A stretch of 13,060 nucleotides of DNA from a virus (IMGVR_UViG_3300037129_000090); one strand, 5' to 3'; counted from the stretch's first letter, positions 4,331-9,761 are shown. Notes: generated from the sequence alone by a model not told the origin. A program made the numbers and translations.

Positions 4331-4365
4331 AGAGGTTTTAAGTTCCCTTAGATTAAAGCAACAGC

Positions 4366-4405
4366 ATTATAACCAATCTATTTATATATGATTACTGCGT
4401 TATAG
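4366..4405 (+). promoter_or_regulatory. Archaeal-type promoter, class B copy 1
   Basis: ATTATAACCAAT-cta-TTTATATATG-N7-CGTTATAG; same blocks and spacing as 9722-9761. Confidence 0.75.
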
Positions 4406-4430: not shown

Positions 4431-4601
4431 ATGAGTGATAAACTAACACTGGAACTTAAAAAGGAATTCGGTACTATTGCAGAAATGATTGAATACCTTG
4501 AACGAATGACAGCAGACATTAAGAACGGTAAAATAGCGGAAACTCCGACATGGCAGATATATATAGCGGAAGCGGAAGATTCAGAATTCAATGAGAGATG
4601 A
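4431..4601 (+). CDS. Hypothetical protein, 56 aa
   Basis: AAAGGAGATGAT RBS supports ATG 4431 (track start 4410); ATGA overlap with the next gene. Confidence 0.75.
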   Translation: MSDKLTLELKKEFGTIAEMIEYLERMTADIKNGKIAETPTWQIYIAEAEDSEFNER

Positions 4602-5421: not shown

Positions 5422-5886
5422 ATGGAGGGTAATGAAGAGGGTAAGGAGAAGACAGAAGCGATAAACGATGCGGCGGCATTAATTAACTTCATGGAATACT
5501 GGAATGCAATATTGGAAGACCGTGAAGAAACATTCAAGAAAATTGACAGTCAAATGATTTCTCTTGAAAAACGCATGGAAGAGAAACGTATTAGAGAAAT
5601 TTGCGGAGACAGAAGCTATGAATTTATGCATATACGTATGCGCGAACACACACGCTTGCACTCGGTATGGAAAGACGACAGAAACGGTGAGAGTATCGTT
5701 ATTCATGGGATGTTTTCAGGAGACGAAGGCTTTATTATCCCACTTCAAACATTAAGCCGCCGCCCCGAACTGAACACAGATGCTTATCTGAAATTCTGGC
5801 AAAATCAGGTAGGTAAGCCGATGCATGAGATTAAGTTAATCCTCATTGGAATAAATCAAAAAGAGATAGTGAACGGAGATTATTAA
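5422..5886 (+). CDS. Hypothetical protein; C-terminal domain paralogous to ORF 6275..6550
   Basis: GTGAGGT RBS (ATG 5422 or TTG 5416); 17/40 ungapped identity around YLKFWQ with the 6275 protein. Confidence 0.85.
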   Translation: MEGNEEGKEKTEAINDAAALINFMEYWNAILEDREETFKKIDSQMISLEKRMEEKRIREICGDRSYEFMHIRMREHTRLHSVWKDDRNGESIVIHGMFSGDEGFIIPLQTLSRRPELNTDAYLKFWQNQVGKPMHEIKLILIGINQKEIVNGDY

Positions 5887-6551: not shown

Positions 6552-6716
6552 ATGGCAGAATTTATAGAATGTCCGGTAGGTTGTGGTTATCGTTGCTCAG
6601 GTTGTGCAATATGCGGCGCGCCCGCTAATCATTATAACTCAACATGCAAAGAGTGTATGGAATGCTTAGAAGCAACTCAAAAATTCTTTAAAATAATAAT
6701 GGAGGTAAACAAATGA
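6552..6716 (+). CDS. Cys-rich micro-protein, 54 aa, 8 Cys (not in ORF track)
   Basis: MAEFIECPVGCGYRCSGCAICGAPANHYNSTCKECMECLEATQKFFKIIMEVNK; starts 2 nt after the previous stop and ends in an ATGA overlap with 6713. Confidence 0.8.
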   Translation: MAEFIECPVGCGYRCSGCAICGAPANHYNSTCKECMECLEATQKFFKIIMEVNK

Positions 6717-6988
6717 AAGCAAATCTAATTTACAAAGGTGTTATCAATGGTGATTTCCGCTTTATGCCAATTGAAGTTGCCTGTAGGGATGATATTAAGG
6801 TCATTATGAGTACACTAATGATTTATAAGAATTCATCGCAACAGTGTCTTGATGTGACTTTAAGCGACTGTAATATGCCTATCCCTAGACATGACTGGTT
6901 TACGTCAGACGAAAACGAAGGAAGCACTGTATTTGAGCGATTTCAGGTATATGAGCTTGTTGGTGTCGATTTTTACGAAGACCAATAA
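6713..6988 (+). CDS. Hypothetical protein, tandem paralog A1, 91 aa
   Basis: GGAGGT RBS; 34/89 ungapped identity to 7072..7341. Confidence 0.9.
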   Translation: MKANLIYKGVINGDFRFMPIEVACRDDIKVIMSTLMIYKNSSQQCLDVTLSDCNMPIPRHDWFTSDENEGSTVFERFQVYELVGVDFYEDQ

Positions 6989-6989
6989 T

Positions 6990-7048
6990 TAACAAAACAA
7001 CAAACAATATACTTATATACATTGAAGTGCTAGTATTGTATAGAAGCA
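6990..7048 (+). repeat. 59-bp promoter cassette, copy 1 (class A)
   Basis: 57/59 identical to 7351-7409, with a 44-bp core (7005-7048) identical; contains CTTATATA and TATACA-N15-TGTATA. Confidence 0.95.
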
Positions 7049-7071
7049 TATTAAATAAGGAGATGATAGTC

Positions 7072-7341
7072 ATGTATGCTAAACTTATTTATTTAGGGAT
7101 GATAGATGGCACACTTGAATATAATACAATAAGGGTAGATTCCATAGATGATGTACGCATGATAATGAAATGCTTAGAAGATAGCACGACTCAAAATAGG
7201 AAGGAATTGAACGTACCTATGGAAGATAAAAATGAAAATATTCCATTAGTTAATTGGTTTTCAAAGGACATAAAGGAAGACGGCGAAACACTAACACGAT
7301 TCCAGATGTATAGACTTGTTGGTGTCGATTTAATTAAGTAA
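7072..7341 (+). CDS. Hypothetical protein, tandem paralog A2, 89 aa
   Basis: AAGGAGATGAT RBS at 7057-7067 and N-terminal alignment to A1 give start 7072, not 7027. Confidence 0.9.
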   Translation: MYAKLIYLGMIDGTLEYNTIRVDSIDDVRMIMKCLEDSTTQNRKELNVPMEDKNENIPLVNWFSKDIKEDGETLTRFQMYRLVGVDLIK

Positions 7342-7350
7342 AATGCAATA

Positions 7351-7409
7351 TAACAAAATAACAACCAATATACTTATATACATTGAAGTGCTAGTATTGT
7401 ATAGAAGCA
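7351..7409 (+). repeat. 59-bp promoter cassette, copy 2 (class A)
   Basis: Direct repeat of 6990-7048 at a 361-bp period; AACCAAT-ata-CTTATATA. Confidence 0.95.
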
Positions 7410-7433
7410 AAATAAAACAAGGAGATGAAAGTT

Positions 7434-7712
7434 ATGGCAAATGGTTTAAAGAAACAGATTCTTGATATACTCACAAATGGAAATATGACAGCAGATGAAC
7501 TTGTATCTAAAATCGCAGATACTTCAAATTCAACAACTCAGAGTAACGGTAATGGTAAAATCAGGCACAAACAACCTATCCACAAAGTAACCGGAATCGG
7601 TAGAATCAATAATGCCTGTAGGCATCTTGTTAAACAGGGTAAAATCACCATGACAAGGGAAGCTAAGGCTAAAGGCACTAACGTTTTCACATGCTCTTAT
7701 CAAAAAGTTTAA
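7434..7712 (+). CDS. Putative winged helix-turn-helix DNA-binding protein
   Basis: KQILDILTNGNMTADELVSKI ... RINNACRHLVKQGKI pattern of helices and wing, with a polar insertion; AAGGAGATG RBS supports ATG 7434. Confidence 0.6.
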   Translation: MANGLKKQILDILTNGNMTADELVSKIADTSNSTTQSNGNGKIRHKQPIHKVTGIGRINNACRHLVKQGKITMTREAKAKGTNVFTCSYQKV

Positions 7713-7724
7713 GGAGAGATAGTT

Positions 7725-8364
7725 ATGAGTAGAGAAGTTGTGTTTTTCTTTCGTAACGATGCAGAAGATGGTGGTAGAGATTGGATAAAATATCTCTCAG
7801 TCGGTGAAAGAGACATCGGCGCAGGACACGGTTTAAGTATCTGCGGTGCTTGTTTCATCGGAGAGAACTTAAAAGAGATTGACACGAAAACAGTTACTAC
7901 ATTCCTTAAGAAAAAGGAATTGAAGACTCTCTTTAATTATGAAATTGAAATGAGAGAGCTTGGATGGAACATAAAAGATGATTCTGTAAAGATGGCAAAG
8001 GCTACTGAACTCTTCAAAACCATCGAACCTATCATCGAAAAGCTCAAGTCAGAAGAGAATAAAAAATTCTTTGAGAATAAGATTCTTCCAGATGAAATGG
8101 AATATCTCAAGGATGAATTTAGTCTCTGATGAAGACCTTGAAACTATATTCAATGAATACTATCAGGAATATAGGGATAGAGCGGTCGTAAATTACGTCT
8201 ATGACAATGTTGAGGACTTGGGAAGATCGAGAGCAGAAGATTTTGGTGTTGTAGAAGAACACTATGAGCAGTATTTCGACTTTGAGGAATTCGGTAGCGA
8301 TTTGCTGAATGACGAGGAATACATTAAACTCAGCGACGGTAGGGTTGCGAGCGTATCCTATTGA
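7725..8364 (+). pseudogene. Single gene split by a frameshift at ~8124-8128; acidic ArdA-like C-terminal region
   Basis: The frame of 7725 ends ...DEFSL-TGA (8127-8129) and the +1 frame continues SDEDLETIFNEYY...YFDFEEFGSDL. The second part has no RBS or credible start. 23 of its last 78 aa are D/E. Confidence 0.7.
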
Positions 8365-8382
8365 GAGGGCTTGAATCCTCTC
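8363..8382 (+). terminator. Putative hairpin after the split gene
   Basis: GAGAGG (8363-8368) / CCTCTC (8377-8382), followed by TAATTTAATTT. Confidence 0.4.
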
Positions 8383-8409
8383 TAATTTAATTTAAGGAGA
8401 TGAAAGACG

Positions 8410-8580
8410 ATGGTCTTAACAAATGAAGAGGTCTTTAAAATCATCGGTGCAAAAATTATCAGTATTGAGCTTAATAATTCAGGTGACCGGATAGAAGAGA
8501 TTCACATAAAGACACGCAGCGGTGAGAATTTAATTATTATCGGCGGTGCTTGTGAGACCTTAGAAGTTCTGAGTAAATAA
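8410..8580 (+). CDS. Hypothetical protein, 56 aa (not in ORF track)
   Basis: MVLTNEEVFKIIGAKIISIELNNSGDRIEEIHIKTRSGENLIIIGGACETLEVLSK; AAGGAGATG RBS; fills the gap. Confidence 0.8.
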   Translation: MVLTNEEVFKIIGAKIISIELNNSGDRIEEIHIKTRSGENLIIIGGACETLEVLSK

Positions 8581-8593
8581 GGAGATGGGATAA

Positions 8594-9357: not shown

Positions 9358-9717
9358 ATGGGGATTAACTGGAAAAACGTTAAATCATTTCTTTATGAAT
9401 CCAAATTCATAATTTTATTGTATGTTATAGGAGATTGGGCGACTACAGCATACGCTTTACCTGTCGGCGCGGAATACAATTATGTACCCTCTTTAATTCT
9501 TGTTAGAGCAGGTATTTATGGCTTGCTAGTTGCGAAATTTGTGTTTGTTATATTACTTTATTGGGGTTACATTAATTGGGTCTCTAATAATAAACAGGTA
9601 ATATACTGGAAATTATTAAAGCATTTCATTGAAATTGTTGGTGTATTTTTAGTAACTAATAATCTAATGGTTATCATGTTTGGTAATAGCTTAATTCAAG
9701 TCATGGGACTTGTTTAA
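9358..9717 (+). CDS. Multi-pass membrane protein, DUF5658-like
   Basis: Three to four hydrophobic segments; GDWATTAYAL..GAEYN resembles the D-x-x-T-T...G-x-E-x-N signature I recall for DUF5658 (not searched). Confidence 0.55.
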   Translation: MGINWKNVKSFLYESKFIILLYVIGDWATTAYALPVGAEYNYVPSLILVRAGIYGLLVAKFVFVILLYWGYINWVSNNKQVIYWKLLKHFIEIVGVFLVTNNLMVIMFGNSLIQVMGLV

Positions 9718-9721
9718 CAAT

Positions 9722-9761
9722 ATTATAACCAATAGTTTTATATATGTATCTTACGTTATAG
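9722..9761 (+). promoter_or_regulatory. Archaeal-type promoter, class B copy 2
   Basis: ATTATAACCAAT-agt-TTTATATATG-N7-CGTTATAG; same blocks and spacing as 4366-4405. Confidence 0.75.

Follow-up and report, generated by a model that had tools for sequence, protein, structure and literature searches.

How can two short intergenic segments be nearly identical when the genes that they follow have strongly diverged? This question is raised by a locus of the virus IMGVR_UViG_3300037129_000090, of which a stretch of 13,060 nucleotides (nt) was analysed (hereafter the window, to which all coordinates refer unless a contig is named). Three genes, called as open reading frames (ORFs) and all located on the plus strand, occupy positions 6713-7712: A1 (6713-6988, 91 amino acids, aa), which encodes an orphan small viral protein, A2 (7072-7341, 89 aa), an old paralog of A1, and a gene for a 92-aa protein of unconfirmed family (7434-7712), whose start, inferred from orthologs, is probably the ATG at 7434 rather than the candidate at 7425. 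A1 and A2 are each followed on the same strand by a putative promoter unit, P1 (6990-7055) and P2 (7351-7416) respectively, the layout being a head-to-tail repeat with a period of 361 nt. The two units are 94% identical over 66 nt and match at 57 of 59 positions across 6990-7048 and 7351-7409; their exact core is a 44-mer (7005-7048 and 7366-7409) which occurs twice in the window even when 3 mismatches are allowed and for which 200 shuffles gave 0 matches. We propose, with a probability of about 0.6, that P1 and P2 are a homogenised promoter pair seated on old paralogs and that the same homology served as a cross-over site for the loss of the A2 unit.

The sequences of A1 and A2 indicate that their duplication is old. 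In a BLASTP alignment, the products of A1 (6713-6985) and A2 (7072-7338) share 34 identities over 87 positions without gaps (E 2e-20), the nucleotide identity of the genes is 50%, and Nei-Gojobori counts give a saturated synonymous divergence (pS 0.79) together with a nonsynonymous divergence (dN) of 0.65. Relatives reached through homologs of A1 consist of three diverged contigs, L001 (9 kb), L002 (2.3 kb) and L003 (1.7 kb), with a typical pS to the window of 0.09-0.36, and the paralog pair of L003 shows the same divergence as that of the window. The initial annotation, which had put the protein identity at 38%, had described the 57/59 match of the spacers and a 17-mer common to both genes and had taken the gene duplication to be old; its measurements were reproduced, and the saturation of the synonymous sites, with the equally diverged pair of L003, excludes an ordinary recent duplication. 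Given the divergence accumulated since the gene duplication, P1 and P2 should be far apart, and their near-identity is not left over from that event. The head-to-tail repeat and its 361-nt period would also be explained if a gene and its spacer had recently been duplicated in tandem, or if the assembly were faulty, but seven independent contigs display the arrangement: L005-L010, one from each of six other samples, match the window at 100% in this region and the seventh, L004, differs there by a single base, so that the arrangement is real. Confronted with these contigs, with the saturated sites and 50% identity of the genes and with the presence of both paralogs in L003, this explanation is refuted in either form and we give it practically no credit. 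L009 and L010, which are independent short-read contigs, both begin at 7380, inside P2, a position that fits the break expected where a 44-nt repeat disrupts assembly.

Comparison with the relatives shows that the promoter copies cluster by genome and not by position. P1 is separated from P2 by 2 differences in 59 positions, whereas each of them differs from the L002 copy at 7 of 59 and from the L003 copy at 6-8 of 39. At six sites P1 and P2 agree with each other and L002 is different. At position 7001 both window copies carry a C, read here as a shared derived state, where L002, L003 and three other members of the promoter family carry a T. The core itself has 5 differences from L002; if the two units had evolved independently since the split from that lineage, at least as many would be expected between their cores and none is seen (Poisson probability ~0.007). 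Such clustering by genome points to a recent homogenisation or re-copying, which appears from these alignments to fit better than selection alone. Among the three explanations offered by the initial annotation, namely strong selection, recent homogenisation and a mobile cassette, homogenisation or copying is thus the one that best suits the counts (2/59 against 7/59), while self-mobility of the unit and excised circles are not supported. In concerted evolution by gene conversion, paralogous repeats within a genome are more alike than orthologous copies although their flanks are old. P1 and P2 are likewise alike within one genome between old flanks; they depart from the usual case by a very short tract (44-59 nt), by being putative promoters in a virus genome and by a mechanism that is deduced. 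One site would recently have received sequence from the other, either by gene conversion or by the re-copying of one promoter onto the place of the other; how the recombination took place, and in which direction each event went, is our inference.

Promoter-bounded units have indeed been gained or lost among these contigs, a point that the initial annotation had suggested checking in related genomes. In L001 and L002, A1 is followed by a single promoter, behind which come the 92-aa gene and an ArdA-like gene of full length, and a 361-nt unit made of A2 and one promoter (7075-7435 in one register, plus strand) is missing. By blastn, L001 2632-3005 corresponds to window 6701-7074 and L001 2867-4168 to window 7296-8587, with L002 behaving alike. 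The two contigs are assemblies from different samples, the k141_... in the name of the L002 contig hints at an assembly with k = 141, a length above that of the repeat, and a third sample has the same gene layout. Just upstream of A1, the L001 scaffold has an N-filled gap and a duplicated A1 start (L001 2530-2630), which is a scaffolding artefact, so that the claim on topology leans also on L002 and on the third sample. No A2 homolog from samples of the L001/L002 lineage was found among 5.8 billion proteins. In the junction alignment, the single promoter of L001/L002 resembles P1 in its 5' flank and P2 in its 3' flank, as expected of the product of a cross-over between the two units. The arrangement in L003 is again different, since A1 is immediately followed by the ribosome-binding site of A2 and a promoter of the P type stands after A2; the 65 nt that are absent between the two genes (6989-7053) are almost exactly the repeated unit. 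The three lineages therefore have three architectures, and neither the invariant gene order nor the synonymous identity as high as that of the spacers, by which the initial annotation would have recognised an ordinary recent duplication, is observed. In the mechanism that we propose, the same 44-59 nt of homology would be the cross-over point, and recombination between P1 and P2 would remove, or in the reversed direction insert, the 361-nt A2-plus-promoter unit and leave one chimeric promoter. Judged from these junctions, the promoters behave as recombination substrates.

The units have the features of a promoter family of archaeal type. P1 contains an upstream motif at 7002-7008 and a TATA-like box at 7013-7019, and P2 contains the same elements at 7363-7369 and 7374-7380. 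The combination AACCAAT-N4-TTATATA occurs 5 times in the 13-kb window, to which all promoter copy counts apply, always on the plus strand and upstream of gene starts (0.01 expected), and it includes 5 of the window's 6 TTATATA heptamers. Each box is located 49-60 nt 5' of an ATG, with a strong Shine-Dalgarno motif in between, such as the AAGGAG at 7057-7062 that precedes the A2 start codon (7072-7074; the whole 7057-7074, plus strand) and belongs to a motif family common to most gene starts. Archaeal promoters recognised by the TATA-binding protein and transcription factor B have an AT-rich TATA box of about 8 bp, a purine-rich B recognition element directly upstream and a start site about 25 nt downstream. 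The geometry of P1 and P2 fits this type, with a predicted leader of about 20-30 nt containing the Shine-Dalgarno motif; the element upstream of the box is AACCAAT, at a distance of 4 nt, and the bases immediately before the box vary. No site matching the sigma-70 consensus was found in P1 or P2 in a scan of 6600-7800, which gave 4 sites elsewhere for 6.2 expected, and a Bacteroidota-type or sigma-70-type promoter was rejected on its spacing. Neither unit has a stable stem-loop (-4.7 and -3.3 kcal/mol; z -0.84 and -0.55 relative to shuffles). The family thus looks archaeal and TATA-type rather than sigma-70-type, the promoter activity of P1 and P2 being predicted from these motifs, and the virus probably infects a methanogen.

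In this scheme, P1 and P2 would be two direct copies of an archaeal-type promoter belonging to a five-member family that cuts the gene block into short transcription units; A2 would be transcribed from P1, and the genes for the 92-aa and ArdA-like proteins from P2. The family is split into two subtypes, P1 and P2 forming one and the three other members, all on the plus strand, the second: 1710-1727 (stretch 1689-1744), 4371-4388 (stretch 4350-4405, kept in L001 at 127-144) and 9727-9744 (stretch 9706-9761, kept in L001 at 5525-5542). Members outside the P1/P2 pair have only 28-42 of 60 positions in common, and promoter function alone therefore needs no near-identity. The second subtype has AACCAAT-N4-TTATATA in common with P1 and P2, and a conserved TTATAG at its end. 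Its copy at 1689-1744 overlaps the 3' end of the gene 1175-1744; the listed GTG start at 1744 is probably wrong, an ATG at 1780 with its own Shine-Dalgarno motif being likelier, and the ATG at 4431 is a likelier start than 4410. A further promoter, 72-74% similar to P1/P2, is present at L001 8699-8782, in a stretch (L001 8102-9000) without counterpart in the window, and its 17-nt upstream part is identical to that of L001's own P. An imperfect dyad extends in P1 from the TATA box to the predicted start region (7012-7046, on neither strand in particular; arms 7012-7021 and 7037-7046, 9/10 complementary, 15-nt spacer) and is repeated at 7373-7407. In L002 its right arm is altered (7/10 left), and its conservation as a putative operator is weak.

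The exchange of sequence may not have been confined to the promoters. The identical 17-mer shared by the 3' ends of A1 and A2 (6956-6972 and 7315-7331), whose A1 copy encodes LVGVD, sits within a 35-nt stretch where the two genes have 83% identity. Where the two proteins have the same residue, the codon is also the same in 4 of 19 cases within codons 1-60 and in 11 of 12 beyond codon 60 (Fisher p 1.7e-4). Between the L003 paralogs, in which the 17-mer is not conserved (13/17), this contrast is less marked (5/17 and 5/8). These patterns hint that the exchange at times extended into the gene 3' ends. A role of the 17-mer as an activator site of the promoter was considered unlikely, the A2 copy of L003, which has a promoter downstream, being changed at 3 of 17 positions, one of them non-synonymous; a terminator was also rejected, since A2 and L002 have no counterpart of the oligo-T run that A1 carries at its 3' end. 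A1 itself is a mosaic. In codons 31-91 no two of the three sequences are closer than those of the window and L002 (pS 0.36). Codons 1-30 (6713-6802) have a pS of 0.79 between the window and L002 and of 0.56 between the window and L003, the L002-L003 value being only 0.22. The A1 comparison points to recombination inside the gene.

Gene-sized changes are frequent over the entire region: across 7.4 kb, about 8 of them set the window and L001 apart, counting insertions, deletions and replacements. At least 4 of those other than the A2 unit have their junctions at ribosome-binding-site motifs. Four extra genes of L001 (352-579, 4169-4369, 6011-6288 and 7576-7832, relative to window positions 4595, 8582, 10215 and 11400) have junctions in or beside (A)AGGAGATGRTA, the Shine-Dalgarno/start motif found 5' of most genes. 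From the position of the junctions, gene-sized swaps here seem to cross over mostly at ribosome-binding-site homology. The region is a recombination-rich block of orphan genes (ORFans) in which any short conserved intergenic motif can be a junction, and the promoter pair is the longest such intergenic homology that it contains.

Several observations weigh against our proposal. Only about 1 of the 8 gene-sized differences, the A2 unit, is promoter-bounded, so that promoters are not the main shuffling device here, and a general role of theirs in gene shuffling is not supported. The 17-mer and the promoter unit are kept apart by 17-19 nt of unlike sequence with an indel, and one continuous conversion tract therefore cannot account for everything. 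Site 6998 follows position and not genome (C in P1 and L002, T in P2 and L003), which means that both promoters may be old and mainly the core homogenised. Since the comparison comprises just three diverged lineages, and the one contig of L003, 1.7 kb long, stops within its promoter, most of the six shared sites are without assigned polarity and all of them could be changes on the L002 branch. The archaeal host, finally, is deduced with some reliance on the promoter architecture. An explanation by selection only keeps some weight. According to it, P1 and P2 would have stayed alike since an ancient duplication of gene plus promoter, no position between the upstream motif and the start site being dispensable; in one variant the 10-nt dyad would be a shared operator for a virus regulator, for example the 92-aa protein, and the differences between lineages would reflect co-evolution of operator and regulator. 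Several features are in agreement with this: the identity ends near the predicted start site without including the 5' leader, the dyad covers the TATA box and the start region, the unit evolves more slowly than synonymous sites between lineages (7/59 for a pS of 0.22-0.36), and site 6998 tracks position. However, the promoter sequence is not frozen, as it varies by 12-20% among the three lineages, the right arm of the dyad is degraded to 7/10 in L002, and the other family members are alike at about half of the positions. A regulatory role of the 92-aa protein is unsupported, and co-evolution would require two fixations of each of the six changes. We therefore judge selection only to be improbable, though it retains a real share.

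Another explanation, which we also hold to be unlikely, is an autonomous or semi-autonomous cassette, in which a unit of about 65 nt would move alone, or with a gene as a small circle, and would have been inserted between A1 and A2. The near-exact coincidence between the 65 nt missing from L003 (6989-7053) and the extent of the P1/P2 similarity speaks for it, as do the related copy at L001 8699-8782 in a region without window counterpart and the precedent of mini-circles in the phage system discussed below (PMC2839356). But terminal repeats, a target-site duplication and an associated recombinase are all absent, this subtype has just two copies in 13 kb, and the same picture would result from a deletion in L003 or from a cross-over at ribosome-binding-site homology between L002-type and L003-type parents. 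A wider version, in which the ~65-nt unit would be a movable cassette of methanogen viruses that, together with ribosome-binding-site homology, lets ORFans be excised as circles and traded between co-infecting viruses, is speculative and we find it doubtful; if true, the unit would amount to a recombinase-free gene-cassette system in archaeal viruses. Homogenisation of the promoter pair with cross-over between its copies remains the explanation that we prefer.

The closest known systems are the promoter-early stem-loop (PeSL) cassettes of the T4-type phages RB49 and phi1, in which a sigma-70 promoter and a stem-loop terminator flank ORFans (Arbiol et al. 2010, PMC2839356; Comeau et al. 2014, PMC4122927). 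There, ORF192 has two flanking PeSLs in RB49 and phi1 has one chimeric PeSL instead, and PeSL mini-circles have been detected (PMC2839356). The present locus similarly has a repeated intergenic promoter unit stretching from the stop of an upstream ORFan to the next Shine-Dalgarno motif and start, in a variable ORFan-rich early region; an ORFan, here A2, lies between two cassettes in one genome and is replaced by one chimeric cassette in a relative, with recombination between cassettes as the proposed cause. The differences are also clear: the promoter is of the TATA-box type and not sigma-70, no stable stem-loop or terminator part is present, the subtype has 2 copies and the family 5 in 13 kb compared with about 50 PeSLs per genome, and cassette-bounded genes make up about 1/8 of the differential ones here compared with 10/14 between RB49 and phi1. 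The locus thus works like a PeSL pair but, having neither sigma-70 boxes nor a stable stem-loop, is not a PeSL. The initial annotation had seen in it an archaeal analogue of the early-promoter cassettes of T4-type phages; this was right for the topology, which is that of RB49/phi1, and not for the sigma-70 boxes and stem-loop of those cassettes. Nor is the analogy novel, as it was already proposed for the haloarchaeal myovirus HGTV-1, where a conserved TATA-box and inverted repeat before most ORFs of the left arm were likened to PeSLs (Sencilo et al. 2013, as described in PMC3950731). That virus and ours have in common an archaeal tailed-virus context, a TATA-like box and an inverted repeat upstream of small ORFs, and an explicit proposal of a PeSL-like role in regulation and shuffling. 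The hosts differ, haloarchaeal there and presumably a methanogen here, and the HGTV-1 proposal is drawn, according to PMC3950731, from resemblance alone, whereas here a cassette-bounded unit is lost in relatives that retain a chimeric cassette, and the copies cluster by genome.

A1 and A2 form an orphan family, with no match in Pfam or PHROG; a profile search of 1.8 billion representatives returned the A1 and A2 clusters only. Orthologs of A1 have 79% aa identity in L001/L002 and 75% in L003, and the A2 ortholog of L003 has 80% (synonymous distance dS 0.29). The structural model of A1 (predicted local distance difference test, pLDDT, 85) had no fold match in PDB, the best Z being 3.9, and in the ESM Atlas it resembles unnamed small proteins of Uroviricota (tailed viruses) with template-modelling (TM) scores of 0.62-0.63. 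The 92-aa protein had been labelled a winged-helix protein, and this label is unconfirmed: the Pfam family MCM4_WHD reaches 20.1 bits (E 6.8e-4, residues 6-39 only) for a cutoff of 24.4, and the model (pLDDT 72), with the order helix-helix-hairpin-helix-hairpin, has as best matches designed alpha/beta proteins (Z 7.2), with no winged-helix chain listed in the pdb, pdb_via_wide and afdb_clusters fold libraries. Downstream lies the ArdA-like antirestriction gene (7725-8364, plus strand), assigned by PHROG 2059 (anti-restriction, E 6.4e-7) and by Pfam PF07275, which matches the C-terminal piece (8071-8364) with 30.7 bits, above the cutoff of 27. In L001/L002 it is a single 215-aa ORF, and in the window a 2-nt deletion near 8122 splits it into the pieces 7725-8129 and 8071-8364. 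The split is present in all of the 100%-identical contigs from other samples and is therefore not a sequencing error; it could correspond to a pseudogene, a two-piece protein or a frameshift site.

Apart from this ArdA-like gene, the genes adjoining the promoters have no assigned Pfam or PHROG family. The promoters lie in a one-strand block of small ORFan and host-takeover genes. A neighbouring 509-aa ATPase resembles tailed-virus proteins, and scans of the window for tRNA and Rfam families gave no matches. Directly upstream of A1, a Cys-rich 54-aa ORF (6552-6716) has several CxxC pairs and is zinc-ribbon-like; present in the window and L003 and absent from L002, it is another case of single-gene presence/absence. 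A blastn search of GenBank phages gave no match. The 30-nt core and a 196-aa neighbour had no match in viral_contigs, the A-family alignment none in metagenome, viral and genome contigs, and the 509-aa ATPase none in genome_contigs, collections that are evidently without this virus group and therefore uninformative on rarity.

Taken together, these data do not reveal a new kind of system, the process being already known from T4-type phages, and most gene-sized swaps in this region use a ribosome-binding-site motif instead of a promoter. They would nevertheless extend the PeSL idea to a TATA-box promoter, on the strength of a comparison of relatives, whereas PMC3950731 reports for HGTV-1 a resemblance only. 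The analysis also provides a defined family of predicted promoters for a virus group without mapped promoters. The three natural architectures are in agreement with a promoter repeat that is both a cross-over site and kept uniform within the genome. As little is known on the control of early genes or on the trade of accessory genes in viruses of methanogens, the locus offers a compact and testable case of both.

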